From contig OY970235.1 of NCBI GenBank assembly GCA_963714145.1, positions 2,961,722 to 3,025,721 of the forward strand: 64,000 nt of DNA. The letters are read 5' to 3'. The position numbers were made by a program, and so were the translations under genes. How positions within the stretch are numbered: the first letter of the stretch is position 1; the number at the start of each line of letters is the position of its first letter. Shown here piece by piece: positions 8,518-36,940 of the stretch. The stretch is from an uncultured Actinomycetota bacterium (GTDB lineage Bacteria > Actinomycetota > Actinomycetes > Mycobacteriales > CADCTP01). The notes under the pieces were generated by a model. That model ran no database searches. It saw only the letters and a list, made by a program, of their open reading frames with translations, and had not been told where the DNA came from.

Positions 8518-11505
8518 TCAGTTCCAGTCGAGCGGGGCGATCGGGCGGCCGGCACCGGTCGGTGGGATACCCGCCTTGCCGAGCGCGTACGTCGCGATCA
8601 TGTGGAACAGCGGTGCGGCGACGGCGCCGCCGTGCAGGCCGCCCTTGGCGTCGTCCACCATGATCGCGATCGCGAACCGGGGCGCGCCGGCCGGCACCAC
8701 ACCGGCGAACGTGGCCCAGTAGCGGTCGGAGTAGCAGCCGCACTTCGGGTCCGGCTTCTGCGCCGTGCCGGTCTTGCCGGCCACCCCGTAGCCGTCGATC
8801 GCCGCGGTGGTGCCGGTGCCGCCGGTCTCGGTCACCGTCTCCAGCATCGACCGGACGGTCCGCGAGGTCGCCTGGCTGACCACCCGGGTCGGCTGCGGCG
8901 CGGCCGGTGCGCTCGTCCGGCCGTCCGGACCGGTCACCCCGGCGATGATCCGCGGCGGCACCCGCACCCCGTCGTTGCCGATCGCCTGGTACATCGAGGC
9001 CAACTGCAACGCGGTCATCGAGACACCCTGCCCGATCGGCAGGTTCCCGAACGTGCTGCCGGACCAGTCCGCCGGCTTCGGCAGCAGCCCGCCGCTCTCC
9101 CCGGGCAGCTGGACGCCGGTCCGGCTGCCGATGCCGAACCTGGTCAGGTAGTCGTAGAAGGCACTCGGGCCGACCTGCTTCGCGATCATCAGCGTGCCCA
9201 CATTGCTGGACTGCGCCAGCACCCCGGTCGCGGTCCACTTCGCCGGGCCGTGCACCCAGGCGTCGTGGATGACCCGGTCGGCCACCTGGATGCTGCCCGG
9301 CACGGTCAGGCGCGTGTCCGGCTTGATCACCCCGCGGTCCAGCGCGGCGGCGAACGTCACCACCTTGTTCGCCGACCCGGGTTCGAAGACGCTCTGCACG
9401 GCCGGGTTGCCGTACTGGCGCGGGTCCGGCATGGCCGGCTTGTGCGGGTCGACCACCGCGGCGGACGCCATCGCGAGCACCTGCCCGGTCCGCACGTCCA
9501 GCACCACCGCCTGCCCGTCCAGCGCGTGCGTCTGCCGGACCGCGTTGGTCAACGCCTGCTGCGCGGTGTACTGCAGGTCCTCGTCCAGGGTCAGCCGGAC
9601 GCTCGAACCGGGGACCGCCGGGGTCTCCCGCCGCTCGCCGCCCGGGATCTCCTCGCCGGCGCTGCCCGCCTCGGCCACGATCTCACCCGGCTTGCCGGAC
9701 AGCGTGTCGTTGTACTTCAACTCGATCCCGGCCAGGCCGGTGCCGTCCCGCCCGGTGAAGCCGAGGACGGCGGCGCCGGTGTTGCTCGGGTAGAGCCGCT
9801 GGGTGGTGTCCTCGGTGCTGATGCCGGGCAGCTTCAGCGCCACGATCCGGGCCGCGTTCGTCGGGGTCACGTCGCGGGCCAGCACCGAGTAGCGGGTGCC
9901 GGCCTTTCGCAGCTTCGGCTCCAGCGTCGCCGCCGGCTGGGCGAGCAGCGGCGCCAGCGCCGCCGCCGTCGCCTCCGCGTGGTCCCGGGCCAGCTTCGGG
10001 TCGGCGAACACCAGCCGGGACGCCACCGAGTACGCCAGCACCCGCCCGTCCCGGTCCACGATCCGGCCCCGGTCGGCCGGGATCACCGTCGCCTCCGCGT
10101 TCGGCTTGAGCGCCGCGTTCTCGTACTGCGGGCCGTCCAGCGCCTGCAACTGCACCAGCCGCCCGCCGAGCACCACCAGCAGCGTGCACATCGCCGCGAA
10201 CCCGGCCGTCAACCGCCGCCCCGGGTCGCCCAGCCGGACGATCCGCACCCCCGGCCGCCGCGGTGGCCGCCCGCCGCCACCACCGGCCCGCACCTGGCCC
10301 CGCGGGCGGCCCGCCGCCGGCGCCCGCCCACCCGCCGGCGCGGTTGCCCGGCCAGGCTGGCCGGACGCTGCCGCCGTGCGGCCGGAGCCGGCCACGCTCG
10401 CAGCCGCCACGGCTGCCGCCCGACCCGAGCCGGAGCCGCCGCGGCCCGAAGCTGCGGCCGTCTCTCGGTCCGACGCCACGGTCGGCGTCCGGCCCGAGGC
10501 CACGCCGGTACGGCCAGCGCCACTCGCTGACCGCCCCGAAGCCGCGGCCGCCCCTCGGTCCGACGCCACGGTCGACGTCCGGCCCGAGGCCACGGCGGTA
10601 CGGCCAGCACCGTTCTCTGACCGCCCTGAAGCCGCGGCCGTCCCTCGGTCCGATGCTGCGGTCGGCGTCCGGCCCGGGGCCACGTCGGTACGGCCAGCGC
10701 CACTCGCCGACCGCCCCGAAACCGCGGCCGTCCGGCCGGCGTCGGCGGTCGCCGCACGAGTTCCGCCGGACGACCGGCCAGCGCCGGTCGGTGCCGTGCT
10801 CCGAGCCGCGCCGGCGGCTGCACTTGCTGTGGACGTACGGCCGGAGCCGGCGGCCGCCGGCCGGGCGCCAGCGGGGACCGTGCTCGCCGCGGCCGCCCGA
10901 CCGCTGCCAGCGGTAGCGCGTCCGGCGCTGCTCGCCGGGCGGGCCGGAACCGACCGGCTGGGACCGGCGGCCGGCGCCGACCGCGTTCCGCCGAGCGAGC
11001 CGGCCGACGCGGTCGCGGCTGAGCCGGCCGACCTCGCCGCTGGACCCGCCGCACCGGCCGCTGCCGACGCGGTCGCGGCGCGGCCGGAGCCGTACTGACC
11101 AGCCGATCCGGCCGCCGTCCGGCCGCGGGCCGGTACACCGGCCCGCGCCGCGTCGATCCCGGCCGGGGTGGCCCGGCCCGCGGGCGCTGCCGTTCCGCGG
11201 GCGGGAGTCGCCGGCGCTCCGGCCGCACGCGGCCCGGTCGCCGCGCCGCTCGGGCCGCGGCCGGCAATGCCCGCCGCCCGGGCCGACCGCCCGCTGGTCG
11301 ACTGCCCGCCGGTCGACTGCCCGCTGGTCGACTGCCCGCTGGCCGGGCGCGCCGCGGGGATGGCTGCGCCGGTCCGACCGGTGGCCGGCCCGCTGCTGGC
11401 GGTACTCCGACCGGCCCGGACCGGATCGGCGCCGGTACGGGCGCGCGCGGCGGCGGCCGGCGTGCCGGCGGCGGAGCGGAAACGGGGGTCGGAGGTAGTC
11501 GTCAT
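8518..11505 (-). CDS. ftsI: FtsI/PbpB, class B penicillin-binding transpeptidase with a ~418-aa low-complexity cytoplasmic N-terminal extension
   Basis: Track ORF 8518..11505. It has a TM segment (LTAGFAAMCTLLVVLGG) and the transpeptidase motifs SANK, SSN and KTGT. ATG 11505 overlaps the stop of the upstream ftsL-like gene (ATGA), which supports the long N-terminus as genuine. Confidence 0.9.
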   Translation of the reverse strand: MTTTSDPRFRSAAGTPAAAARARTGADPVRAGRSTASSGPATGRTGAAIPAARPASGQSTSGQSTGGQSTSGRSARAAGIAGRGPSGAATGPRAAGAPATPARGTAAPAGRATPAGIDAARAGVPARGRTAAGSAGQYGSGRAATASAAAGAAGPAARSAGSAATASAGSLGGTRSAPAAGPSRSVPARPASSAGRATAGSGRAAAASTVPAGARPAAAGSGRTSTASAAAGAARSTAPTGAGRSSGGTRAATADAGRTAAVSGRSASGAGRTDVAPGRTPTAASDRGTAAASGRSENGAGRTAVASGRTSTVASDRGAAAASGRSASGAGRTGVASGRTPTVASDRETAAASGRGGSGSGRAAAVAAASVAGSGRTAAASGQPGRATAPAGGRAPAAGRPRGQVRAGGGGGRPPRRPGVRIVRLGDPGRRLTAGFAAMCTLLVVLGGRLVQLQALDGPQYENAALKPNAEATVIPADRGRIVDRDGRVLAYSVASRLVFADPKLARDHAEATAAALAPLLAQPAATLEPKLRKAGTRYSVLARDVTPTNAARIVALKLPGISTEDTTQRLYPSNTGAAVLGFTGRDGTGLAGIELKYNDTLSGKPGEIVAEAGSAGEEIPGGERRETPAVPGSSVRLTLDEDLQYTAQQALTNAVRQTHALDGQAVVLDVRTGQVLAMASAAVVDPHKPAMPDPRQYGNPAVQSVFEPGSANKVVTFAAALDRGVIKPDTRLTVPGSIQVADRVIHDAWVHGPAKWTATGVLAQSSNVGTLMIAKQVGPSAFYDYLTRFGIGSRTGVQLPGESGGLLPKPADWSGSTFGNLPIGQGVSMTALQLASMYQAIGNDGVRVPPRIIAGVTGPDGRTSAPAAPQPTRVVSQATSRTVRSMLETVTETGGTGTTAAIDGYGVAGKTGTAQKPDPKCGCYSDRYWATFAGVVPAGAPRFAIAIMVDDAKGGLHGGAVAAPLFHMIATYALGKAGIPPTGAGRPIAPLDWN
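10451..10720. repeat. 90-bp tandem repeat x3 inside the ftsI 5' region
   Basis: Unit heads (gcYgcggccgNcYctcggtccga) occur at 10451, 10541 and 10631, with a partial fourth at 10721. The repeat encodes ~30-aa units such as GRSASGAGRT.VA.GRT.T.ASDR..AAAS. Confidence 0.9.
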
Positions 11506-12920
11506 CGGTGCTGTCCCGGGGTAGGCGTCTGGGTGGGGTTTGGCTGGTTCGCCGGGTCCGGCTGCTGGCCCGGCAGCGGCTGGTTGCCCGGCAGCGCCGC
11601 GGTGGGCGTCGGGGACGGCGTCGGCGGCGGGGGTGGTGCGGTGGCCGGCACCGCGGTCCCGGCGATGCGCGCCCGGCCGTCCTTGTCGATGATCAGGAAG
11701 CCACGCTGCCCGCTCGGGACGAGCCCGAGCCGGCTGGCCGCACTGGCCAGTGCCCCGGGCGCCTCCAGCGCCGAGATCTCCCGGGCCAGTTCCTGCTCGC
11801 GCAGCGAGAGATCGCTGTTCTGCTTCTGCAGCCGCCGCTGTGCGAACGAGTTCGCCGCCAGCACCGAGTTGAGCAGCAGCAGCGCGATCAGCCCGAGGCC
11901 GAGCACCCCGACCATCAGCACCACGAACGGCGTGCGCGGCGCCGACGACCGGGACCCGCCGACCAGGCTGACCAGCGGCCCACCCGGCACCGCACCGTCC
12001 AGCTGCGACGCCGCGGCCCGGCCCCGGCCGGCGCCGGCCGCACTGTCCGCCCGCGCCGCCGGCCCGGTCGGCTCGCCGGCACCCGCCACGGCCGCCGCCC
12101 GGCGCCGGCCACCGGCCGGCACCGACCCACCGTCCGCCGCCGGCGCGGACACTCGCCGGGCCCGCGAACCGTCCGGCCGGCCGACCCCGGGGTCGCCACG
12201 CCGGGACCGGCGCGGCGCTGCCGCCGGCTCCGGCTCGATGCCAGCCTCGACCGGCGACCGCCGAACAGCGCCGGACACCGCCGCCCCGTCCGCGTCCGCC
12301 GCCGGCATGCGCCGCCGGGCCCGCGAACCCACGCCGTCCGGTAGTTGCCCGTCGGCGGGCGGACGGCGGGGCGCCGGAACCGGGTCGCTGTCGACCGGCC
12401 GCCGCCGGGGTGACCGGGTGGCGGCGGTCCGCCCGCGGGTCGCGTCGCCGGGCCGGCCGGAATCCCGCTCGGCCGCGCCGGCCGGCTCGCGCCGACCCGG
12501 GACGTCCACGGGTGGTCGCCGCCCGGCACGCCGGGCGGCGGAGGCCGACTCCGGCTCCGGCCGGGCAGCCGGCTCGGTGGCCCGGCGCCGGCCCGGCGAA
12601 CCAGCGGCGGGCACCTGGCCGGGCGGTTCGGTACGGGCAGGTTCGCGGCCGGCTGCCTGGCCACCAGTTGCCCCGTCCGGCCCCGCGGTCCGCTGGCGGC
12701 CGGCAGCCGGCGCGCGCCGGGCGGCGGTCGGGTCGGTCGGCCGGCCGGTCCGGGTGGCCGCGGCCGGTGGCTGGGCACGGTGGTCCGGCGCCGGGGTGTT
12801 CGCGCCGGGCCGGACGGTGGCGGGATCGCGTCCGGCGGCGGCGCTCATGCCCGTACCCCGCTGCCGTCCAGCCCTCGTCCCGTGGACCGTCCCGCCGTCG
12901 CCACCGACCGCCCCGGCCAC
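11502..12920 (-). CDS. FtsL-like septation protein (single TM plus coiled coil) with a long Arg/Ala/Pro-rich N-terminus
   Basis: Track ORF 11502..12920. A TM segment (FVVLMVGVLGLGLIALLLL) is followed by QRRLQKQNSDLSLREQELAREISALE. Its position between rsmH and ftsI is canonical for ftsL. In-frame ATG 12848 is an alternative start. Confidence 0.7.
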   Translation of the reverse strand: MAGAVGGDGGTVHGTRAGRQRGTGMSAAAGRDPATVRPGANTPAPDHRAQPPAAATRTGRPTDPTAARRAPAAGRQRTAGPDGATGGQAAGREPARTEPPGQVPAAGSPGRRRATEPAARPEPESASAARRAGRRPPVDVPGRREPAGAAERDSGRPGDATRGRTAATRSPRRRPVDSDPVPAPRRPPADGQLPDGVGSRARRRMPAADADGAAVSGAVRRSPVEAGIEPEPAAAPRRSRRGDPGVGRPDGSRARRVSAPAADGGSVPAGGRRRAAAVAGAGEPTGPAARADSAAGAGRGRAAASQLDGAVPGGPLVSLVGGSRSSAPRTPFVVLMVGVLGLGLIALLLLNSVLAANSFAQRRLQKQNSDLSLREQELAREISALEAPGALASAASRLGLVPSGQRGFLIIDKDGRARIAGTAVPATAPPPPPTPSPTPTAALPGNQPLPGQQPDPANQPNPTQTPTPGQHR

Positions 12921-13083
12921 CTGCCGGCCGGAGCCGGACCGACCGGCCGGGCCGGCCGCGTCCCGCTCCTGCCGGCTCCGCCCCGGTGGCCGCCCCGGGC
13001 AGGGCGGGCGGCGCGCTGGTCAGCGTCCGGACCCGGCCCGAGGCGCCACGCGCGCTGGGTCATTGGCTCGCTCGCGAGCTCGC

Positions 13084-14043
13084 TCATGCCGCGCCCCCGG
13101 CGATCCGGATGCGCTCAGCCGCGCGGAGCCGGGCCGAGGCGGACCTCGGGTTGGCGGCGAGCTCCGCGTCGGTCGGGGCCTCGGCGCCGCGGGTGAGCAG
13201 GCGCAGTTCCGGGCCGTGCCCGGGCAGGGGCACCGGCAGGCCGGGCGGGGTGGTGTCCCGGGCGCGGTCGGTGAGGGCCTGCTTGACCAGCCGGTCCTCG
13301 AGCGACTGGTAGCTGAGCACGACGATGCGGCCACCGAGGCGGAGCGCCTCGATGGCGGCCGGCAGCGCGCCGCGCAGCGCGTCCAGCTCGTGGTTGACCT
13401 CGATCCGCAGCGCCTGGAAGGTCCGCTTGGCCGGGTGCCCCCCGGTGCGCCGGGTCGCCGCCGGGATCGAGTCGCGGACCAGCTCGGCCAGCCGCGCCGT
13501 GGACGTGAACGGCGCCCTGGCCCGCTCCCGGACGATCGCCGCGGCGATCCGGCCGGCGAACCGCTCCTCGCCGTATTCCCGCAGCACCCGGGCCAGCTGC
13601 CCGGCCGGGTATTCGTTCACCACGTCGGCGGCGGTCGGCCCGGTGGTCGGGTCCATCCGCATGTCCAGCGGCGCGTCCTGAGCGTACGCGAAGCCGCGCC
13701 GCGCCTCGTCCAGCTGGAGCGAGGAGACGCCGAGGTCGAACAGCACCCCGTCGACACCGGTCAGGCCCAGCCCGGCGAGCACGTCCGGCAGCTCGTCGTA
13801 GACCGCGTGCACCAGCCGCAGCCGGTCCGCGTACGGCTCCAGCCGGGCCCCGCCACGGCGCAGCGCCTCCGGGTCGCGGTCCAGGCCGACCAGGGTCAGC
13901 TCCGGGTGCGCGGCGAGCAGCGCCTCGGCGTGCCCGCCAAGGCCGAGGGTCGCGTCGACGACCACCGCCGGGTGGTCGACCACCGCGGGGGCCAGCAGGC
14001 CGAGGACCCGCTCGGTCAGCACCGGGACGTGGCCGCTCGCCAT
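13084..14043 (-). CDS. rsmH: RsmH (MraW), 16S rRNA m4C1402 methyltransferase
   Basis: This is the 3' 319 codons of track ORF 13084..14193. Motifs: [38 protein letters not shown] chose ATG 14043 because the longer ORF only adds Gly/Arg-rich sequence. Confidence 0.9.
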
Positions 14044-14311
14044 CACGGACCCCCTCTCGACTCCTCGATATCGCCGGCGTGTCGCCCCCCGCGAGGCGGC
14101 CTCGAGGACGAGCGCAGGGCCCGCCCCGTACCTGCTGCTTGATCTCCCGCCCGTACCGCCAGGTCCCCGCCCGCTCCCCCGCGGACCGCTCACCTGGCAC
14201 CGGGGAAGGTGCGCCAGGGTGGCGGTCCAGCGTTTCCGCGCCGCTGGTGCGTCACGCGGAGCGGGAGGAGACCTCGCCGTACGGACAGCTCCGTGCCTCG
14301 ATCCGAGCCGG

Positions 14312-14743
14312 TCAGAGCACCCCGGGCAGCACCTCCTCCTCCAGGTCGGCGAACGCCTGCTCCCGGTCGGCCAGGTAGGTCTCCCAGGCGGCGGTGTCCC
14401 AGATCTCCAGCCGCGTGTTCGCGCCGATGACCACGCAGTCCTTGGTCAGCCCGGCGTACTGGCGCAACTGGGTCGGGATGGTGACGCGGCCCTGCCGATC
14501 CGGGATCTCGTGCGAGGCGCTGGCGAAGAAGACCCGGCTGTAGTCACGCACTGTCTTCTGGGTGACCGGCGCCTGTGACAGCGCCTCGGTGACCCGACGG
14601 AACTCCTGGATCGGGAACACGAACAGACAGCGTTCCTGCCCTTTCGTGATCACGAGCCCCTCCGCCAACTCGTCCCGGAACCGGGCCGGCAGGAAGAGCC
14701 GGCCCTTCTCGTCGAGCCGGGGCGAGTGCGTACCGAGAAACAC
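14312..14743 (-). CDS. mraZ: MraZ, dcw-cluster transcriptional regulator
   Basis: This is the last 143 codons of track ORF 14312..15049: [26 protein letters not shown]...[15 protein letters not shown] (two SpoVT/AbrB-like halves). GTG 14741-14743 gives the canonical 143-aa length. Confidence 0.92.
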
Positions 14744-14790
14744 CCGGCACCACCTCCGCTCGACCCGGTGGCCACGACCCCCCGTCGTTC

Positions 14791-14830
14791 TCCACCGCGC
14801 GCCACCATACCCCACTTTCCCCCACCCACA
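14791..14830 (-). promoter_or_regulatory. Candidate MraZ operator: GTGGN boxes at exact 10-bp phasing, ending 48 nt upstream of the mraZ start
   Basis: The minus-strand sense reads TGTGG GTGGG ggaaa GTGGG gtatg GTGGC gcgcg GTGGA. On the plus strand, CCAC occurs at 14792, 14802, 14812 and 14822. The 5-nt box plus 5-nt spacer layout matches the direct repeats reported for E. coli MraZ. Confidence 0.55.
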
Positions 14831-15056
14831 ACCGTGAAATCGCCTCCCGCGCTCCACTTGGTGCCCATTCGCGCAGGTCAGCAGGTGGAGCCGCAGTGGG
14901 GCGCCGCCACGCCCCCCGCCGTCGAATTGAGTGCCCCCACTCCGCTCCACCGCCGGCACCGGCCCAGTACTGCCGGAACTGACAGCCCGAGTGGGGAAAC
15001 GTGGAGCGAATGACGGGCCCCGGACGCCGGGCAACGACACCCAACCCACCGCCGAC

Positions 15057-15330
15057 GGCTTCGCCTCGCGGGTGACGGCTCCGCCCCGCAGGTGGCGGCT
15101 CCGCGTCCCGGGTGGCGGCTTCGCCCCGCGGGTGACGGCTCCGCCTCGCAGGTGGTGGCTTTGTGTCCCGGGTGAGGGCTGAGCGCCATCACCGGCGTAC
15201 CCGTACTCGTCACCGACCAGCGGTCGACGTCACCGACGCACCGAAGCCGTCACCCGCACCCGCGACGGCATCACCACCGGGCGAAAGTCATCACTCGCCT
15301 GCGGAAAGCGTCACCACAAGGCGGGAGCCG
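15057..15330. repeat. Thirteen 20-bp-phased units in two opposed arrays (6 x GGTGR, then 7 x TCAC(C)), dyad centre near 15182
   Basis: GGTG occurs at 15071, 15091, 15111, 15131, 15151 and 15171 (exactly 20 bp apart; the units form two 60-bp super-repeats). TCAC occurs at 15189, 15210, 15230, 15250, 15271, 15291 and 15311. The array lies in the intergenic region between the small CDS 15603-15845 and mraZ. Confidence 0.85.
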
Positions 15331-24336: not shown

Positions 24337-24430
24337 AGCCCCTCCCGTCCCGTCGGCCACCTTCCGGCAGTGAACCACCCCGCACCGACAATTCCGCCGG
24401 ACGCACCGCGGCAAAACCGCCAGCAGACGC

Positions 24431-24656
24431 ACCGTGGGGTCCGCGGGGGCTCGGTCCCCGCGGCCAGCATGCCGGGCGACCCGGCGAGCGCTACCCGCGA
24501 GCAGGGTGCGCCCAAGCCCGGCCCCCGCGGCCAGCATGCCGGGCGACCCGGCGAGCGCTATCCGCGAGCAGAGTGCGCCCAAGCCCGGCCCCCGCGGCCA
24601 GCATGCCGGGCGACCCGGCGAGCGCTATCCGCGAGCAGGGTGCGCCTGAGCCCGGC
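24431..24656. repeat. Hairpin-headed intergenic repeat: a 25-bp head followed by a 67-bp unit x3
   Basis: Unit starts (ccccgcggccagcatgccgggcgacccggcgagcgctaYccgcgagcagRgtgcgcc...) are at 24456, 24523 and 24590. The head hairpin ccgcgggg/ccccgcgg spans 24441-24463. The third copy supplies the last codons of the methyltransferase 24625..25392. Confidence 0.9.
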
Positions 24657-25392
24657 GGGCCAGGAGGTGCAGCTGGGTGGCGATGTCGCGGTAGGGCGGG
24701 ATGGCGGCGACCGCGAGCTCCAGGGCGCGCAGCGCGTCGGCGACGCCAGGGACGGCCTCCAGCGCACCCGGCAGCAGGTCGGCCACCACCCGGACCCCGT
24801 GCACCGACTCGACCGTCAGCCCGGCGGCCACGATCAGGGCGCTGACCTCAGCGGTGTCGAACCGGCGCAGCGCGCTGTCGGCTTCACTCCAGCGGCCGGC
24901 CGGGTCGGTCAGCGCGCGCAACGCGTCCGCCGGATGGCCGCCGAGCGCCCGGGACAGCACGGTGGCCGCCCGGCCGGCCACCAGCACGCTGGCGCAGCCG
25001 CCCGGCCGGACCGCGCCGGCGACCGTGGCCAGCGTCTTCGCCGGGTCGTCCACCATTTCCAGCAGCTGGTGGCAGAGCACCAGGTCGTACCCGGCCGGCG
25101 GCAGCTCGCCGGCCAACCCGTCCACATCGCCGCAGATCGCCGAGACCCGGTCGGCCACGCCCACCTCGACGGCCCGGCGCTGCAGGGTGGCCAGCGCGTC
25201 CGGGCTGGCATCGACCACGGTGACCCGGTGCCCCAGCTCGGCCAGCGGCACCGCGAACACCCCGCTGCCGCCACCGAGGTCGAGCACCGTGGTGCCGTCC
25301 GCGTCGACGGCACGGCGGCTCAACTCGTTCCGCAGCACTTCCCAGACCACGGCCGTACGCGGTGAGACGTGCGCCCGCCCGCCCTCCGTCAA
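24625..25392 (-). CDS. Class I SAM-dependent methyltransferase
   Basis: Track ORF 24625..25392 (TTG start; an internal GTG is possible). Motif I is VLDLGGGSGVFAVPLAELG, followed by DLVLCHQLLEMVDDP...VRPGG. Confidence 0.75.
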   Translation of the reverse strand: MTEGGRAHVSPRTAVVWEVLRNELSRRAVDADGTTVLDLGGGSGVFAVPLAELGHRVTVVDASPDALATLQRRAVEVGVADRVSAICGDVDGLAGELPPAGYDLVLCHQLLEMVDDPAKTLATVAGAVRPGGCASVLVAGRAATVLSRALGGHPADALRALTDPAGRWSEADSALRRFDTAEVSALIVAAGLTVESVHGVRVVADLLPGALEAVPGVADALRALELAVAAIPPYRDIATQLHLLARRAQAHPARG

Positions 25393-25458
25393 GGCCCACC
25401 ACTCCTCGCCGTTCGGCTCCCGACCTCCGGTCGCCCCGAACGAGCCTAGTCGGCGCCG

Positions 25459-25923
25459 TCAGCCGGCGAGCGCGGCGAGCCGCGGGCCGGGCAGCAGGCC
25501 GAGCGTGGTCTCCACCAGGGCCAGGAACGTCTGCACGTCGCGAACCAGGTCGTCGGCTTCCCGGCCGGACACCGCGTGCTGCACGCCGGCCTCGGCGGCG
25601 GCCCGCTTGCCTGCGCCGGCGGCGAAGAACGCGGCCCACTCCCCCAGCTCCGGCGCCACCGCGGTGAGCAGCACCCAGGCACTGGTCGGCCGGCGGCGGC
25701 GCCCGCGCGGATCGGCGGCCTGCGCCCGGGCCGCCAGCACCGCGGCCGAGGCGCGCAGCGCGGCCAGGTGCGCGGCGGCGTACCGGTCGGGCGCGGCCGG
25801 CAGCGCGGCGGCTTCCTGGAGGCCACGCCGGGCCTGCTCGAGCAGGGTGACCGCGGCCGGGGCGACCGGGGCGCCGAGCTGCGGCGGCCGGGACCGGCGT
25901 GACACGGTAGTCATGACGCTCAT
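25459..25923 (-). CDS. HEPN-like helical protein (resembles what I recall as the SAV_6107 family)
   Basis: ATG 25923 lies within track ORF 25459..26034 and overlaps the stop of the upstream gene (ATGA at 25920-25923). The product contains DRYAAAHLAALRA (an R-x4-H motif) and ...EWAAFFAAGAGKRAAAEAG...READDLVRDVQTFLALVE. Confidence 0.55.
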   Translation of the reverse strand: MSVMTTVSRRSRPPQLGAPVAPAAVTLLEQARRGLQEAAALPAAPDRYAAAHLAALRASAAVLAARAQAADPRGRRRRPTSAWVLLTAVAPELGEWAAFFAAGAGKRAAAEAGVQHAVSGREADDLVRDVQTFLALVETTLGLLPGPRLAALAG

Positions 25924-26333
25924 AGCTGATCTTCCTCCACCCGGGTCGCCAGCCACCGGGACTCCTCCCGGTCGTGGCACAGGTCGAACACCAGCACCGC
26001 CGAGTTGCGACCGGCCGCGGCCGCCACCCGCCACACCTCACGGTCGGCCGCGCCGACGACCGCCGACCGACCGGCCGGCTGCCGCCGCGGCAACACGTCA
26101 GGCACCTGCCAGCCGCCCGGGCCGCTACCGGCGGAACCGCCACCAGCGGCACCGCCGACCGGCGCGCTGGCACCGGCGTACGCCTGGACCGGCGCGGCCC
26201 ACCGCCACCGGCTCGGCTCCACCCAGCGCGCGAGCACCTCGCGGACCACGTACAGCCGGGCACGCAGCAGGAACTGCTCCGGCGCCGCACCGCGCCGCAC
26301 CACCTCGACGGGCTCGTCGTGGATCCCCGGCAT
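25920..26333 (-). CDS. Small conserved hypothetical protein, translationally coupled to the HEPN-like gene
   Basis: ATG 26333 (GGGGAG SD) lies within track ORF 25920..26444. The product is MPGIHDEPVEVVRRGAAPEQFLLRARLYVVREVLARWVE...VWRVAAAAGRNSAVLVFDLCHD. It may be a DUF6504-type protein, but I cannot verify this. Confidence 0.55.
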   Translation of the reverse strand: MPGIHDEPVEVVRRGAAPEQFLLRARLYVVREVLARWVEPSRWRWAAPVQAYAGASAPVGGAAGGGSAGSGPGGWQVPDVLPRRQPAGRSAVVGAADREVWRVAAAAGRNSAVLVFDLCHDREESRWLATRVEEDQL

Positions 26334-26558
26334 CGCTCCCCGCCACCCCTTTGTCACCCGAGGCCTCTCGCCGGGCGGACCGGGGGTCGAGTTCCGCCCA
26401 CCCGGCGAGAGGCGTTCCGATCGCTCGAACAGGTGTTCGAACAATGAGGAGAGACTACACCGGGAGACCGACAGAAAGGCAACGCCGAACTGACCGTCCG
26501 GCGTGTCGAAGTGAACGGGTGGCCGGACGTTGCGGCATGCGGTCCGCGACCCGGCCGC

Positions 26559-26650
26559 ACCGTGGGGTCCGCGGGGGCTCGGCCCCCGCGGTCAGCATGA
26601 CGGACGCCACGGCGAGCGCTATCCGCGAGCAAGGTGCACCCAGGCCCGTG
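26559..26650. repeat. Solo copy of the 24431-type repeat (head hairpin plus one unit)
   Basis: caccgtggggtccgcgggggctcggcccccgcggtcagcatgacggacgccacggcgagcgctatccgcgagcaaggtgcaccc. The hairpin at 26569-26591 has a 9-bp stem. It has the same orientation as the 24431 element and again lies just 3' of a minus-strand gene (cysG stop at 26661). Confidence 0.85.
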
Positions 26651-26660
26651 GCCGGTCCGG

Positions 26661-27992
26661 CTACGCCGGTGCTGACCACAGGTCGGCGCGCAGCCGGACC
26701 ACCTCGCCCACCACGACCACCGCGGGCGGCCGCAGCCCGGCCCGGGTGACCTCGGCGGCGACCGTGCCCAGGGTGGCGACCAGCACCTGCTGGTCGGCCC
26801 GGGTCGCGTTGCGGATCACCGCGACCGGGGTGCCGGCCGGCCGGCCGCGCTTGACCAACTCGGTGGCCACCGCGGCCAACTGGTCCAGCGCCATCAGCAG
26901 CACCAGCGTGGCCGGCCCGTCGGCGAGCGCCTGCCAGTCGACGGTGGAGCCGGGACGGGTCGGGTCCAGGTGACCGGAGACGACGGCGAAGTCGGCGGCC
27001 AGGCCGCGGTGGGTGACCGGGATGCCGGCGGCGGCCGGGCCGGCCAGCGCCGAGCTGATCCCGGGCACCACCTCCACCGGGACGCCGGCGGCCACGCAGG
27101 CGGCCACCTCCTCACCACCGCGGCCGAAGACGAACGGGTCGCCGCCCTTGAGCCGGACCACCCGCTTGCCGGCCCGGGCCCGGTCGACCAGCAACGCGTT
27201 GATCTGCTCCTGGGTGGCGCCCTCGCCGTGCGGCGCCTTACCCATGCCGACCACCTCGACGGCCGGGTCCAGCTCGGCCAGCAGCGCCTGCGGGGCCAGC
27301 CGGTCGACCACCACGACGTCCGCCTCGGCCAGCAGCCGCCGGCCCCGGACGGTGATCAGTTCCGGGTCGCCCGGGCCGCCACCGACCAGCGCGACGGAGC
27401 CCACTGGGCCGACCACGCCGCCCGCCAGGCCCGCGACGGAGGCCACTGGTCCGGTCGCCGGCTCGGCCACGGCGCCCGTGGCCGGATCCGCCGCTGAGCC
27501 CGCCTGGCCGGCCACCGGACCCCCGCTCGACGGGCGGCGGTGCCGGACCGGCAGCTGCCCGGCCGCCAGCAGGGACATCACCGCGTCCCGCAGCGCCACC
27601 GCCCGGGCCGGGTCGCCATCGGCGTTCACCGCCACGGTGAGCCCGCCGGAGCGGGCCGTCGCCGGCGTCCGGGCGGTGCCGCCGGCCGCCGCGTCGGCCC
27701 GGACGCAGGGCACCCGGTGCCGTTCCGCCTCGGCCGCCACCGCGGCGTTCACCGCGGGGTCGTCGGTGCAGGCGTGGGCCAGCCAGGCGCCGGCCAAGTC
27801 GCCGTCGGCGTACCGGCGCCGGTGCACGGCGACCCCGAGTGCGGCCAGCGCGGGCAGCACCGACGGGGCGATCACGTGCACCAGCGCGCCGGCCTCGACC
27901 AGGCCACCGGCCCGGCGCAGGGCCACCGCGCCGCCGCCGACCACGACGACCCGGCGACCGGTGAGATCGAGCAGCAGCGGGTAGCCAGTCAC
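26661..27992 (-). CDS. cysG: Siroheme synthase (precorrin-2 dehydrogenase/ferrochelatase domain fused to uroporphyrinogen-III C-methyltransferase)
   Basis: Track ORF 26661..27992. The N-terminal Rossmann motif is RRVVVVGGGAVALRR. The C-terminal SUMT domain has LVGGGPGDPELITVRG and VVRLKGGDPFVFGRGGEE. Confidence 0.85.
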   Translation of the reverse strand: MTGYPLLLDLTGRRVVVVGGGAVALRRAGGLVEAGALVHVIAPSVLPALAALGVAVHRRRYADGDLAGAWLAHACTDDPAVNAAVAAEAERHRVPCVRADAAAGGTARTPATARSGGLTVAVNADGDPARAVALRDAVMSLLAAGQLPVRHRRPSSGGPVAGQAGSAADPATGAVAEPATGPVASVAGLAGGVVGPVGSVALVGGGPGDPELITVRGRRLLAEADVVVVDRLAPQALLAELDPAVEVVGMGKAPHGEGATQEQINALLVDRARAGKRVVRLKGGDPFVFGRGGEEVAACVAAGVPVEVVPGISSALAGPAAAGIPVTHRGLAADFAVVSGHLDPTRPGSTVDWQALADGPATLVLLMALDQLAAVATELVKRGRPAGTPVAVIRNATRADQQVLVATLGTVAAEVTRAGLRPPAVVVVGEVVRLRADLWSAPA

Positions 27993-33715: not shown

Positions 33716-34127
33716 CCGGTCGGGAGCGGGGAGTAAGCCGCACCAGGCCGGTTAGCCCGGCCGGGTCGACGAGGTTTCAGCGTGTCGCTGTCTGGGTGGT
33801 CGACCCGGTCACCGGGGGCGACACACCATGCTGGAGACGCGCAGCAGATCAACGTGCAGGCGCGCAACGAGTCCAGCTGAATACAGCATGCTAGAAATCC
33901 TGACACAGGCAGCCGGTCGCGTCGAGCGACTCCGGCCACTACCCGCCGCCCACCGGCCGCATCCGGTCGCCCCTGACTCCGCCGCTGTGCGATTCTGGAT
34001 GCCGTGACGTCCGCTGGCGTACCGCTGGTGGCCCGGCTGCACATCGACCTGCAGCGGGTCGGCAGTGCGGCATGTCCGGAACTGCGCGCATAACCGGCAT
34101 CCCGTCGTATCGGAAGGACCTCCGCGC

Positions 34128-35783
34128 ATGCCGCGCACCGGACCGGGCGTTGGGCAGGGCCAGTGGGCCCTGGGCTACCGCGAGCCGCTGAACCCGAACG
34201 AGCGGACGAAGAAGGACGACGACCCGCTCAACGTCAAGCGGCGCATCCTCGACATCTACCAGCACACCGGCTTCGCCGGCATCGACCCGGCCGACCTGCG
34301 CGGCCGTTTCCGCTGGTACGGCCTCTACACCCAGCGGGCGGCCGGCATCCCCGGCGGCCGCACCGCGGTGCTGGAACCCGAAGAGCTCGAAGACGAGTAC
34401 TTCATGCTCCGGGTCCGGATCGACGGCGGGCTGCTGTCCAGCGAGCAGCTGCGGGTGGTGGCCGGGATCGCCACCGAGTTCGGCCGGGACGTGGCCGATA
34501 TCACAGATCGGCAGAACGTCCAGCTGCACTGGATCCGGATCGAGGACGTGCCGGAGATCTGGCGCCGGCTGGACGCGGTCGGCCTGGACACCACCGAGGC
34601 CTGCGGCGACACCCCGCGCGTCATCCTCGGCTGCCCGCTGGCCGGGGTGGCCGCCGACGAGGTGCTGGACGCGACCGCGGCGCTGCACGCGGTGCGCGAG
34701 CGCTACATCGGCGACCCGGCGTTCTCCAACCTGCCGCGCAAGTACAAGACCTCGATCTCCGGCTGCGCCCGGCACTGCACCAACCACGAGATCAACGACG
34801 TCTCGTTCGTCGGCGTCCCCGGCCCGGACGGCACCCCCGGCTACGACCTCTGGGTCGGCGGCGGGCTGTCCACCAACCCGCGGTTCGCGGTCCGGCTCGG
34901 CGCGTTCGTGGAGCCGGACCGGGTCGCCCCGGTCTGGGCCGGGGTCACCTCGGTGTTCCGGGACTACGGCTACCGCCGGTCCCGGATCCACGCCCGGCTG
35001 AAGTTCCTGCTCGCCGACTGGGGCCCGGAGCGGTTCCGCGAGGTGCTGGAGAAGGAGTACCTGGAGGCGCCGCTGCCGGACGGCCCGCCGCCGGCCGCGT
35101 ACAGCGGGCCGCGCGGTCACGCCGGCGTGACCGCGCAGGCCGACGGCCGGTCGGCGGTCGGCTTCGCGCTGCGGGCCGGCCGGACCAGCGGCGCCCAGCT
35201 GTCCCGGGTGGCCGAGCTGGCCGACGGGTACGCCGGCAGCCGGATCCGGACCACCGCGCAGCAGCAGCTGGTGATCACCGACGTGCCGGCCGACCGGGTC
35301 GAGCCGCTGGCCGGCGCGCTGGCCGCGGAGAACCTGCCGGTGCGCCCGTCCGCGTTCCGGGCCGGCACGATGGCCTGCACCGGCATCGAGTTCTGCAAGC
35401 TCGCGATCGTCGAGACGAAGGTCCGGGCCGAGGAGCTGTACGCCGAACTGGAGCGGCGGCTGCCGGACTTCGACACCCCGGTCACGATCAACCTGAACGG
35501 CTGCCCCAACTCGTGCGCCCGGTTCCAGGTCGCCGACATCGGCTTCAAGGGCTCGGTCGCCCGCGGCCCGGACGGCGGCGACGTCGAGGTCTACCAGGTG
35601 CACCTCGGCGGCCACCTCGGCGGCGACGCGGCGCTGGGGCGCAAGTTCCGCGGCCTCAAGGTGGACGCCGACCACGCCGCCGACTACATCGAGCGGGTGC
35701 TGCGCGGCTACCAGTCGCGCCGCGAGCCGGGCGAGGCGTTCGCCGGCTACGTCGCCCGCGCCGACGAAGCCTGGCTCAGGTGA
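34128..35783 (+). CDS. Ferredoxin-dependent sulfite reductase (NirA/SirA type, siroheme plus 4Fe-4S)
   Basis: Track ORF 34065..35783; I chose ATG 34128 (GGAAGGA SD). Cluster cysteines are in MACTGIEFCKLA...NGCPNSCAR. Confidence 0.88.
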   Translation: MPRTGPGVGQGQWALGYREPLNPNERTKKDDDPLNVKRRILDIYQHTGFAGIDPADLRGRFRWYGLYTQRAAGIPGGRTAVLEPEELEDEYFMLRVRIDGGLLSSEQLRVVAGIATEFGRDVADITDRQNVQLHWIRIEDVPEIWRRLDAVGLDTTEACGDTPRVILGCPLAGVAADEVLDATAALHAVRERYIGDPAFSNLPRKYKTSISGCARHCTNHEINDVSFVGVPGPDGTPGYDLWVGGGLSTNPRFAVRLGAFVEPDRVAPVWAGVTSVFRDYGYRRSRIHARLKFLLADWGPERFREVLEKEYLEAPLPDGPPPAAYSGPRGHAGVTAQADGRSAVGFALRAGRTSGAQLSRVAELADGYAGSRIRTTAQQQLVITDVPADRVEPLAGALAAENLPVRPSAFRAGTMACTGIEFCKLAIVETKVRAEELYAELERRLPDFDTPVTINLNGCPNSCARFQVADIGFKGSVARGPDGGDVEVYQVHLGGHLGGDAALGRKFRGLKVDADHAADYIERVLRGYQSRREPGEAFAGYVARADEAWLR

Positions 35784-35854
35784 GCTCCGCTCACCGGGAG
35801 ACTCAGTGAGCGGACACCAGCCGATGCGGTCGGCCTTGCGCACCGGGAGGGATA

Positions 35855-36079
35855 GTGGCGCACGCTCCGCCGTTCTACTGCCCGTACTGCGGGGATGAGG
35901 ATCTGCGGCCGTTCGGGGAGAAGCACGGCGACTGGCGCTGCGGCGCCTGCCGGCGCGTCTTCACGCTGCGCTTCGTCGGGCTGGCGCGGCCGGACGGGAC
36001 GGCGGTGACCGGCGACGCGCCGGCCGGCGGGTCGGTGGCCGGCATAGTCGCGGAGGTCGACGGGTTGGGCCGGACATGA
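35855..36079 (+). CDS. Small Zn-ribbon protein (CPYC...CGAC) between the sulfite reductase gene and cysH
   Basis: Track ORF 35855..36079: MAHAPPFYCPYCGDEDLRPFGEKHGDWRCGACRRVFTLRF. A GGGAGGG SD precedes the start. A small gene occupies this position in other actinomycete cys clusters, as far as I recall. Confidence 0.6.
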   Translation: MAHAPPFYCPYCGDEDLRPFGEKHGDWRCGACRRVFTLRFVGLARPDGTAVTGDAPAGGSVAGIVAEVDGLGRT

Positions 36080-36234
36080 GCGAGCTTGCGAGCGAATCAG
36101 GCAGCACGGTGCGCTCGTGTCTCATGACGGGTCCGAGCGCCAGCGAGGAGCCGGCATGAGCGAGCTTGCGAGCGAATCAGGGAGCACAGTGCGCTCGTGT
36201 CTCATGACGGGTCCGAGCGCCAGCGAGGAGCCGG
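36075..36234 (+). repeat. 80-bp tandem duplication (78/80 identical), each unit carrying an SD, an ATG and an overlapping TGA
   Basis: The units span 36075-36154 and 36155-36234, and the head CATGAGC recurs at 36235. See the first finding for the mini-ORF relay. Confidence 0.95.
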
Positions 36235-36235
36235 C

Positions 36236-36940
36236 ATGAGCATTGCGGTGACCGAGCAACCCCGGCTGGCCGCGCTGGCCGCCGAGGCCAACGCCAGGCT
36301 GGGCCGGGCGCACCCGCTGGACGTGCTGCGCTGGGCCGCGGACGAGTTCGGCGACGGGCTGTGCGTGGCCTCGTCGATGGGCGACGCGGTGCTGCCACAC
36401 CTGGCCTCCCGGGCCCGCCCCGGCATCCCGATCATCTTCCTCGACACCGGCTACCACTTCGCCGAGACCATCGGCATGCGGGACGCGGTGGCGGCCACCC
36501 TGCCGGTGACCGTGCTCAGCATCCAGCCCCGGCGGACCGTCGCCGAGCAGGACACCGACGAGGGCCCGCGGCTGTTCGAGCGCGACCCGGACCGCTGCTG
36601 CGCGCTGCGCAAGGTGGCCCCGCTGGCCGGCGCGCTGGCCCCGTACACGGCCTGGGCGGCCGGGTTGCGCCGGGACGAGAGCGAGACCCGGCGGAACATC
36701 GGCGTGGTGGAGTGGGACGCCAAGCACGGCCTGGTGAAGCTGAACCCGCTGGCGAACTGGACCGAGGACGACGTGCAGGCCTACATCGCCGAGCACGGCG
36801 TGCTGGTCAACCCGCTGCACTACGACGGGTACGAGTCGATCGGCTGCGCGCCGTGCACCGCCCGGACGGCCGGCGGCGCCGACGCGCGGGCCGGGCGCTG
36901 GGCCGGCAGCACCAAGACGGAGTGCGGCCTGCACGTCTGA
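36236..36940 (+). CDS. cysH: APS/PAPS reductase (Fe-S type CysH)
   Basis: Track ORF 36197..36940. I prefer ATG 36236 (GAGGAG SD, 6-nt spacer). Cysteines are CCALRKV plus C-terminal GCAPCT, and the protein ends in ECGLH. Confidence 0.9.
   Translation: MSIAVTEQPRLAALAAEANARLGRAHPLDVLRWAADEFGDGLCVASSMGDAVLPHLASRARPGIPIIFLDTGYHFAETIGMRDAVAATLPVTVLSIQPRRTVAEQDTDEGPRLFERDPDRCCALRKVAPLAGALAPYTAWAAGLRRDESETRRNIGVVEWDAKHGLVKLNPLANWTEDDVQAYIAEHGVLVNPLHYDGYESIGCAPCTARTAGGADARAGRWAGSTKTECGLHV

Follow-up and report, generated by a model that had tools for sequence, protein, structure and literature searches.

Mycobacterial interspersed repetitive units (MIRUs) have been used for 25 years in the typing of tuberculosis strains, and to our knowledge neither their movement nor their placement on start codons has been explained. 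They reportedly go back to Supply and colleagues (1997). Their units measure 40-100 bp, number 40-50 copies per genome and lie within operons, with open reading frames (ORFs) that overlap the adjacent genes and with tetranucleotide direct repeats at filled sites (reviewed in PMC3184786); a further paper describes MIRUs by this design of a small ORF overlapping neighboring stop and start codons (PMC12548453). Here we analyze a 64-kb stretch of actinobacterial DNA (the window, meaning the whole stretch; G+C content 75.6%), in which two tandem 80-nt units, each holding a 27-codon mini-ORF, lie between a gene for a zinc-ribbon-like (Zn-ribbon) protein and cysH. These two units most probably form a tandem array of a small, dispersed, insertion-type element of MIRU-like design, called a relay element below, which keeps the coupling between the genes it separates and does not act as a sensor of sulfur.

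In the senX3-regX3 locus of M. tuberculosis (CP012506.2; L135), the senX3 stop and the start of the first MIRU unit overlap in an ATGA. Of the three units, two are 77 nt long and hold a 25-codon ORF each (MTCADDDAERSDEVGAPPACGGEWR), with a stop that overlaps the following ATG, and the third is an in-frame fusion to regX3. The array in the window follows a similar plan. Its units (36075-36154 and 36155-36234) are identical at 78 of 80 positions and differ only at 36102 (C) vs 36182 (G) and at 36108 (G) vs 36188 (A). Since both mini-ORFs translate to MSELASESGSTVRSCLMTGPSASEEPA, the two differences are synonymous. The overlap ATGA occurs at 36076, 36156 and 36236. A preliminary description of this DNA had reported the near-identical units, the identical 27-codon mini-ORFs and the three ATGA junctions, along with a chain of overlapping stops and starts that runs from the Zn-ribbon gene through the mini-ORFs to cysH with a Shine-Dalgarno motif and an ATG in each unit; all of this was confirmed in the sequence. 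Tandem Repeats Finder delimited a repeat at 36069-36241 (period 80, 2.2 copies, 96% matches, score 323), a span in which the junction sequence GCCGG(A)CATGAGC is therefore counted three times, and a 26-nt pattern of the unit's head gave 2 matches vs 0 expected in shuffles.

The array belongs to a dispersed family. We collected this family by scanning the species genomes of GTDB with the head ATGAGCGAGCTNGCGANCGA, and all family counts given here are among the matches listed. The head was found in more than 120 stretches at the least, and elements sharing this 24-nt head lie at unrelated gene junctions in at least 20 actinobacterial genera, so that the caution in the preliminary description that the unit may be genome-wide, and not specific to cys genes, was well placed. 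The hosts listed include Pseudonocardia, Kutzneria, Actinophytocola, Amycolatopsis, Actinokineospora, Kibdelosporangium, Sciscionella, Actinoplanes, Catenuloplanes, Trebonia, Geodermatophilus, Nocardioides, Kribbella, Marmoricola, Nocardia and Rhodococcus rhodnii, as well as one Streptomyces assembly, Acidimicrobiia and many metagenome-assembled genomes (MAGs) of Actinomycetota; none of the 120 family loci listed is from Mycobacterium. Several copies per genome occur, for instance on 6 contigs of Actinoplanes regularis and at 3 loci of Kutzneria sp. CA-103260. The sole Streptomyces among the matches, 'Streptomyces sp. MN03-5084-2B', has a tandem pair (L030, 6066-6223) almost identical to Amycolatopsis copies (L018, 5316-5396, and L021), which may be due to mislabelling or contamination of the assembly or to horizontal transfer.

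The stop/start geometry is shared across the family. Ninety-six of 139 head matches open an ORF of 19-35 codons, and 95 of these 96 end in ATGA (79) or GTGA (16). Spacing from one ATG to the next has peaks at 77 nt (26 aa), 74 nt (25 aa) and 65 nt (22 aa), and the period of 80 nt (27 aa) in the window is one codon above the main, 77-nt class. A family profile (nhmmer; 87 elements, all from other genomes) delimited 117 arrays across the fetched loci, of which 98 are single, 15 double and 4 triple. The relay is unbroken in 71 of the 74 arrays with xTGA (x = A or G) at both ends, and an ORF of at least 60 codons precedes 54 of the 74, ending on the TGA of the head, and follows 66. Tandem junctions in the family are either overlaps (25,25; 26,26; 22,22; 26,26,22) or in-frame fusions (51; 52). 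Nearly all members run in the same direction as the flanking genes, beginning on the upstream stop and finishing on the downstream start, and these neighbors hold up as genes: all 8 downstream ORFs tested have Pfam domains beginning near residue 1 (a short-chain dehydrogenase, a GMC oxidoreductase, an ABC ATPase, a thymidine phosphorylase-type protein, DUF6084, DNA polymerase III delta', an enolase-superfamily enzyme and a glutamyl-tRNA reductase), and both upstream ORFs tested (an ABC ATPase and a cytidine deaminase) are real, with domains that end at the element. Genes preceded by the element include hemA, holB and deoA, and none of the flanking genes tested, 8 downstream and 2 upstream, is sulfur-related. 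It had been argued beforehand that a scatter over unrelated sites, in both orientations and without conserved ATGA junctions, would speak against a relay. The sites are indeed unrelated, but nearly all copies are co-oriented with the genes and 95 of 96 keep an ATGA or GTGA junction. For the same reason, the alternative offered at that time, a repeat element that happens to preserve coupling, is correct as to the repeat element but not as to 'happens', since coupling is preserved systematically. In some copies (L024, L025, L031, L060, L064, L091, L117 and L124) the head continues into an ORF of 229-532 codons without a terminal stop/start overlap; these may be N-terminal extensions (MSELASE...) of the downstream protein, or may start alike by chance.

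At the cysH locus itself, both the presence of the insert and the number of its units are polymorphic. Near-identical strains were recovered by exact-protein look-up of the CysH and Zn-ribbon proteins. In one of them (L001, MAG GCA_035544115.1), the first unit is 81 nt long with the junction CCGGACATGA and the second is 80 nt long; the mini-ORFs are therefore fused into one 54-codon ORF, which still ends on the cysH ATGA. The metagenome contigs L002, L003 and L005 end inside the array. Contig L129 has two full 81-nt units and the beginning of a third, and its partner contig L130 starts within a unit and has one further unit before cysH, and therefore that population carries at least 3 units. 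Unit number is thus 2 in the window and L001 and at least 3 in L129/L130 and L005, despite identical CysH and Zn-ribbon proteins, and the internal junction is also variable among strains with identical CysH, being an ATGA overlap with an 80-nt unit and an in-frame fusion with an 81-nt unit. The preliminary description had remarked that 80 nt is exactly what an ATGA relay requires, which is right as arithmetic, but that length is not conserved at the locus, given the 81-nt internal units of near-identical strains.

Two relatives have no insert. On the P0001 contig, with a CysH 95% identical to that of the window, a 70-aa Zn-ribbon gene overlaps cysH by 4 nt; in L007 (CysH 85% identical) the junction is ACGTGA and the overlap is likewise 4 nt. 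The P0001 CysH begins MSIAV, as in the window, and its Zn-ribbon protein ends DGLTRT, thus giving ACATGAGC as the native junction. At the filled site, CATGAGC stands on both sides of the insert as a short direct repeat. A different element, of 119 nt, occupies the same Zn-ribbon/cysH junction in L006 (GCA_039648995.1, CysH 90% identical). The cysH junction therefore holds an 80-nt subfamily in the window and a 119-nt subfamily in L006, and is empty at intermediate CysH identity in the P0001 lineage, a distribution that reflects either repeated insertion or insertion with remodelling and precise loss. In the L006 element (239-361), the terminal ATGA is changed to ATGG, and the mini-ORF overlaps cysH by 14 nt.

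Across the family, the reading frame is conserved and the peptide is not. Among 83 full-length profile matches, length is divisible by 3 in 79 and the mini-ORF frame (frame 0) is open in 80. Differences between close copies at third, second and first codon positions stand at 191:154:188 and 204:289:403, counts that argue for a mini-ORF peptide free of purifying selection. Without a third-position excess, the two synonymous differences within the window, previously taken as a hint of selection on the peptide, are therefore uninformative. The comparison of orthologous sirA-cysH spacers proposed along with that hint did reveal varying unit number and empty sites at 95% and 85% CysH identity, but no synonymous excess is found in family copies. 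Beyond MSELASES the family peptides are hypervariable, with neither Cys nor Met conserved. At the nucleotide level, GAGG is conserved 8-11 nt ahead of the terminal start in about 90% of elements, and the bases directly after the terminal ATGA are G (86%) and then C (64%), suggesting that targets such as ATGAG(C) are preferred. RNAalifold found no family-wide RNA structure over 42 elements (-3.2 kcal/mol, 0 compensatory pairs); subfamilies carry differing local hairpins, such as GTCCGC-GAAT-GCGGAC, and the head and tail motifs are direct, not inverted.

A second, decayed member of the family lies elsewhere in the window. The only other similarity to the unit within the 64 kb is at 13068-13091 on the minus strand, identical at 23 of 24 positions (blastn-short, E 9e-6), and the earlier remark that the unit's head recurs at the rsmH stop is accurate. 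Alignment of the unit, the L006 insert and the window sequence from 13087 to 12968 (minus strand) gave a common head, CATGAGCGAGCTYGCGAKCGA, and a common tail, GGAGCCGGCAKG; the L006 insert and the rsmH-site sequence agree at 99 of 119 positions (83%). The family profile recovered the two units of the array (E 8e-15 and 2e-15), the rsmH-site head (E 1e-6) and nothing else in the window. The terminal ATG of this second element is mutated to AGG (12970-12968), and as a result its ORF continues for 80 codons, as far as 12845. The run-on ORF overlaps the start region of an FtsL-like ORF (11502-12920) in another frame.

The likeness to MIRUs extends beyond senX3-regX3. The 40-100-bp units of MIRUs, in head-to-tail arrays, compare with 2 x 80 nt in the window and with family periods of 65, 74, 77 and 80 nt; the position between co-oriented genes has its counterpart in the Zn-ribbon gene and cysH, which share a strand and flank the array; and a small ORF whose start and stop overlap the flanking stop and start is found in the window and in 95 of 96 family mini-ORFs. 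Also shared are a copy number that differs between strains, as in variable-number tandem repeats (2 vs at least 3 units at the window locus), filled and empty sites with a short direct repeat (CATGAGC at the window locus), and a mixture of overlap and fusion junctions, the family's main 77-nt period being that of M. tuberculosis. The sequences, however, are distinct. The head is ATGAGCGAGCTTGCGAGCGAATCA here vs ATGACCTGCGCCGACGACGATGCA in MIRUs, internal junctions are 4-nt ATGA overlaps here vs 1-nt TGATG overlaps in M. tuberculosis, and the relay-family hosts are non-mycobacterial actinobacteria. The family profile found no similarity in the M. tuberculosis senX3-regX3 array (best E about 1), and its best match on the M. 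avium MIRU292 unit (sequence from PMC7977185) was on the wrong strand with an E of 0.46. We therefore speak of a MIRU-like element and not of a member of the MIRUs. A tail homology with M. avium MIRU292, considered on account of a shared 11-mer (GAGCGCAGCGA), was dropped when nhmmer gave it no support, and since this motif is in addition placed differently relative to ATGA in the M. tuberculosis array, we claim no homology with MIRUs. Likewise set aside was the idea that MIRU locus 24 of M. tuberculosis maps to the sirA-cysH region, as no paper was found that links MIRU24 to Rv2391-Rv2394. A blastn search of plasmids with a MIRU292 dimer gave no match and a scan of viral contigs with the MIRU core pattern gave 0. 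In the literature covered, to which subscription journals do not belong, no relevant paper on MIRU-like elements outside mycobacteria was found, the species name 'Actinosynnema mirum' accounting for one candidate.

Each unit opens with its invariant head, whose ATGA contains the TGA at which the upstream gene stops, continues in an open frame of about 22-27 codons with no fixed amino-acid sequence, and closes with a GAGG/GGAG ribosome-binding motif and an xTGA overlapping the downstream start. From this arrangement of codons and repeats we propose the following sequence of events. The ancestral junction would have been ACATGAGC, with the Zn-ribbon stop directly overlapping the cysH start, and one unit would have inserted exactly there, leaving CATGAGC at both sides. 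Further units would then have been added when the 12-13-nt junction repeats GCCGG(A)CATGAGC misaligned and recombined, by slippage or by unequal exchange. Where the exchange fell to one side of the additional A, it would yield an 80-nt unit with the junction CCGGCATGA and an ATGA overlap, as in the window, and where it fell to the other side, an 81-nt unit with the junction CCGGACATGA and an in-frame fusion, as in the sister strains. Both outcomes would keep the translation chain intact. Ribosomes leaving the Zn-ribbon ORF would re-initiate on mini-ORF 1, then on mini-ORF 2 and then on cysH, aided by the tail GAGGAG, and through this relay the insert would be nearly neutral for cysH expression. 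Insertion at stop/start overlaps would be tolerated since the element restores such an overlap at each of its two ends, with the downstream gene still starting on an ATG or GTG that overlaps a stop, now with a GAGG just upstream.

Other explanations account for part of these observations. The preliminary description had suggested that the mini-ORFs are tandem leader peptides, gating cysH translation by the supply of sulfur amino acids. In favor of this, they immediately precede cysH, one Cys and two Met codons occur in each of them, the differences between units are synonymous, and predicted hairpins cover start codons and GGAG. A device of this kind would nevertheless be expected to stay with its gene, whereas the insert is absent at 95% and 85% CysH identity, is replaced by a different element at 90%, differs in unit number and junction type between strains that share the same CysH, and precedes unrelated genes in many genera; the peptide shows no codon-position sign of selection, its Cys and Met are not conserved in the hypervariable family, and no terminator-like site or conserved alternative structure was found, although local hairpins exist in the window variant. 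We consider sulfur-sensing leader peptides extremely improbable. A purely local tandem duplication, in which a minisatellite of the junction sequence carries the relay as a by-product of duplicating an ATGA junction, would agree with the same 12-13-nt repeat flanking and separating the units, with the strain-variable copy number and with the restriction of the exact 80-nt variant to this locus. It would explain the step from one unit to 2-4 but not the origin of the unit, which matches at E 1e-15 a profile drawn only from other genomes and has its head, tail and length class in common with elements at other, unrelated loci, making this explanation very unlikely. Equally unlikely is an ectopic copy, by gene conversion or template switching, of the 5' end of the gene after rsmH into the cysH junction. 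The 23/24 identity of the heads and the 83% identity of the L006 insert over 119 nt to the rsmH-site sequence would follow from it, but the rsmH-site sequence is itself a family member that begins on the rsmH stop, and the same head occurs in those more than 120 stretches of other genomes; both sites are therefore copies of an element and not source and copy.

A cis-acting RNA or DNA element, such as an mRNA stabilizer or a processing or protein-binding site comparable to REP/BIME or Correia repeats, with the frame incidental, is unlikely as the whole explanation, and it can coexist with the relay. Head and tail are conserved as nucleotides while the peptide varies, hairpins are subfamily-specific, and the window array is predicted to fold a little more stably than shuffled sequences (z = -2.4), its head pairing with an internal CTCATG and its GGAG with an upstream UCC; the antisense strand folds no better than shuffles (z = -1.0). 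However, no consensus structure or compensatory pair was found family-wide and there is no Rfam match: a scan of 35700-36500 with Rfam 15 (E <= 10) returned sub-threshold chance matches only, the best being sul1 at 22 bits vs a gathering score of 36.2. An incidental frame, moreover, would not yield 79 of 83 lengths that are multiples of 3 or 95 of 96 stop/start overlaps.

Several points weigh against the relay element that we favor. The pattern used in collecting the family already held ATGA and the head, so that conservation of the head is partly ascertainment and diverged copies were missed. Within its 64 kb, the window shows only 2 family loci. A variant-specific metagenome scan found the 80-nt variant at this locus only and no 'master copy' of it, and the variant may have arrived either by transposition or by conversion from another copy; the empty site of the P0001 lineage fits precise loss as well as independent insertions. 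Translation of the mini-ORFs and re-initiation are predicted from their geometry. No convincing Shine-Dalgarno motif precedes the first mini-ORF, with GGAGG no closer than about 20 nt upstream, and the hairpins predicted over the start codon and GGAG in the window array (the fold at z = -2.4 above) could let it modulate cysH translation beyond passing ribosomes on.

Among other repeats and regulators, REP/BIME, ERIC and Correia repeats and miniature inverted-repeat transposable elements (MITEs) are likewise short, dispersed and non-autonomous, lie between operon genes, and are sometimes clustered and co-transcribed. They are, however, palindromes or have terminal inverted repeats, occur in both orientations and have no frame tied to a neighboring stop or start, whereas the relay family has no conserved palindrome or covarying stem, takes its orientation from the genes and conserves its frame. 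Rickettsia palindromic elements (RPEs), which are palindromic and insert in frame inside protein-coding genes, resemble it in that a small repeat survives in a gene-dense genome by keeping a frame open, and some relay copies run into ORFs of 229-532 codons; the difference is that RPEs are found inside genes and the relay family at stop/start overlaps, normally as a separate mini-ORF. With leader-peptide attenuators and upstream ORFs the array shares a short ORF directly upstream of a biosynthetic gene and a translational link, here predicted. Leader peptides remain associated with the operon under their control and are rich in regulatory codons; the cysH insert is absent in close relatives and varies in unit number, and the element stands before unrelated genes elsewhere.

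A broader reading, to which we give somewhat less than even weight, is that the units belong to a hitherto undescribed and pan-actinobacterial family, whose members are mobile relay mini-ORFs that insert specifically into ATGA overlaps and are selected only for ribosome flow. Such a family would have a near-invariant 24-nt head and a period of 65-80 nt, with a few longer members such as the 119-nt L006 element; would range from Acidimicrobiia to Pseudonocardiaceae, Micromonosporaceae, Treboniaceae, Nocardioidaceae and Nocardiaceae; and would be either an ancient relative of the mycobacterial MIRUs or an independent invention. Two subfamilies at one cysH junction in sister lineages would point to targeted insertion. 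A literature string search found the head, its reverse complement and MSELASES in no paper; subscription journals are outside its coverage, and an earlier description is possible. The array gave no blastn match against plasmids and phages, and the 4 matches of the family head in viral contigs were all ordinary genes that merely start MSELA.

For the cysH locus, the outcome is deflationary: the array is probably no sulfur-sensing device, the mini-ORFs should not be annotated as genes, and cysH should not be extended into them. The single locus is ordinary, while the family behind it is moderately interesting and apparently little described. A sequence-distinct family with the MIRU design across many actinobacterial orders permits comparative study of co-occurring genes, targets and fusions, and its breadth, if the pan-actinobacterial reading is true, would allow a search for the mobilizing machinery by phyletic co-occurrence. 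The alleles of the array (2 vs at least 3 units, overlapped or fused) offer a natural test of how far termination-reinitiation relays. There is also a practical hazard, in that metagenome assemblies break at such arrays and gene callers add spurious N-terminal extensions, as with RegX3 proteins of 245-277 aa instead of 227. MIRU-type arrays create inconsistent annotated N-termini: in public gene calls, M. tuberculosis RegX3 (P0125-P0134) has 227, 245, 248, 256, 262, 277 and more residues, and the 256-aa call in L135 (1356-1590) results from the in-frame fusion of the last MIRU unit to regX3.

Table 1. Positions of the array, its second family member and the flanking genes in the window.
Feature	Position	Strand	Remarks
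Decayed second family member, ~119-nt subfamily	12968..13087	-	ATG overlaps the rsmH stop (ATGA 13087-13084)
rsmH-like ORF (putative)	13084..14193	-	Label from the preliminary description and dcw context: mraZ-like ORF upstream, FtsI-like ORF downstream
Sulfite/nitrite reductase (sirA-like) ORF	34065..35783	+	Pfam NIR_SIR 6e-56, NIR_SIR_ferr 5e-38; first gene of the operon segment
74-aa Cys4 zinc-ribbon-like protein	35855..36079	+	TGA 36077-36079 overlaps mini-ORF 1 ATG 36076-36078
Whole repeated stretch	36069..36241	+	x-unit-x-unit-x, x = GCCGG(A)CATGAGC; inserted array plus duplicated junction
Unit 1/mini-ORF 1, 27 codons + TGA	36076..36159	+	Head ATGAGCGAGCTTGCGAGCGAATCA; stop overlaps next ATG as ATGA
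GAGGAG Shine-Dalgarno-like motif, unit 1 tail	36145..36150	+	5 nt before ATG 36156
Unit 2/mini-ORF 2, 27 codons + TGA	36156..36239	+	Stop overlaps cysH ATG as ATGA
GAGGAG Shine-Dalgarno-like motif, unit 2 tail	36225..36230	+	5 nt before cysH ATG 36236
cysH (phosphoadenylyl-sulfate reductase), 234 aa	36236..36940	+	Pfam PAPS_reduct 1e-45

The Zn-ribbon gene, the array and cysH are all co-oriented on the plus strand, in an operon predicted from the sequence, and no promoter-like or terminator-like sites were found between sirA and cysH (Table 1). CysH homologues have 234 aa and start MS, and ATG 36236 is therefore the true cysH start; the nearest named CysH relatives come from Jatrophihabitantaceae or Mycobacteriales MAGs. 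For the sirA-like gene, called as 551 aa in strain L001, the window coordinates are those of the ORF, with a putative start codon. A Pfam search of the 74-aa Cys4 protein gave no match, and its gene is kept between sirA and cysH in L007 and on the P0001 contig. The 70-aa Zn-ribbon protein of the empty-site relative (P0124) is named 'transposase-like protein' by JGI/IMG, and the window copy hypothetical by NCBI; the former name is probably an artefact of weak similarity, and we saw no link to the repeat. When the Zn-ribbon genes are aligned, the sirA stop in L001 falls one base off the end of the window ORF, and therefore a 1-nt indel is apparent between the strains in the 71-nt sirA/Zn-ribbon spacer. 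In L007 the sirA and Zn-ribbon genes overlap by 4 nt, vs this 71-nt spacer in the window.

The window holds further repeats unrelated to the array. Three tandem 67-nt units lie at 24452-24656 (Tandem Repeats Finder, 95% matches; region 24428-24656), with an 89%-identical 93-nt copy 2.1 kb away at 26556-26648, and these copies bracket a region with the ORFs 24701-26749 (plus strand) and 24884-26290 (minus strand). The 67-nt unit contains a G+C-rich palindrome, CCGCGGGG...CCCCGCGG, and the relay-family profile has no match there. Five or six tandem 20-nt units (CGGCTYCGCCYCGCRGGTGR) occupy 15036-15180, just upstream of an MraZ-like ORF (14312-15049, minus strand). MraZ binds direct repeats upstream of its own operon, and we presume that these 20-nt units could be MraZ operator repeats. 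Finally, a 90-nt tandem repeat of 3.2 copies (10445-10733) lies inside an FtsI/PBP-like ORF (8518-11505, minus strand), in whose N-terminal part it encodes a recurring 30-residue segment rich in Gly, Arg, Thr, Ala and Ser.

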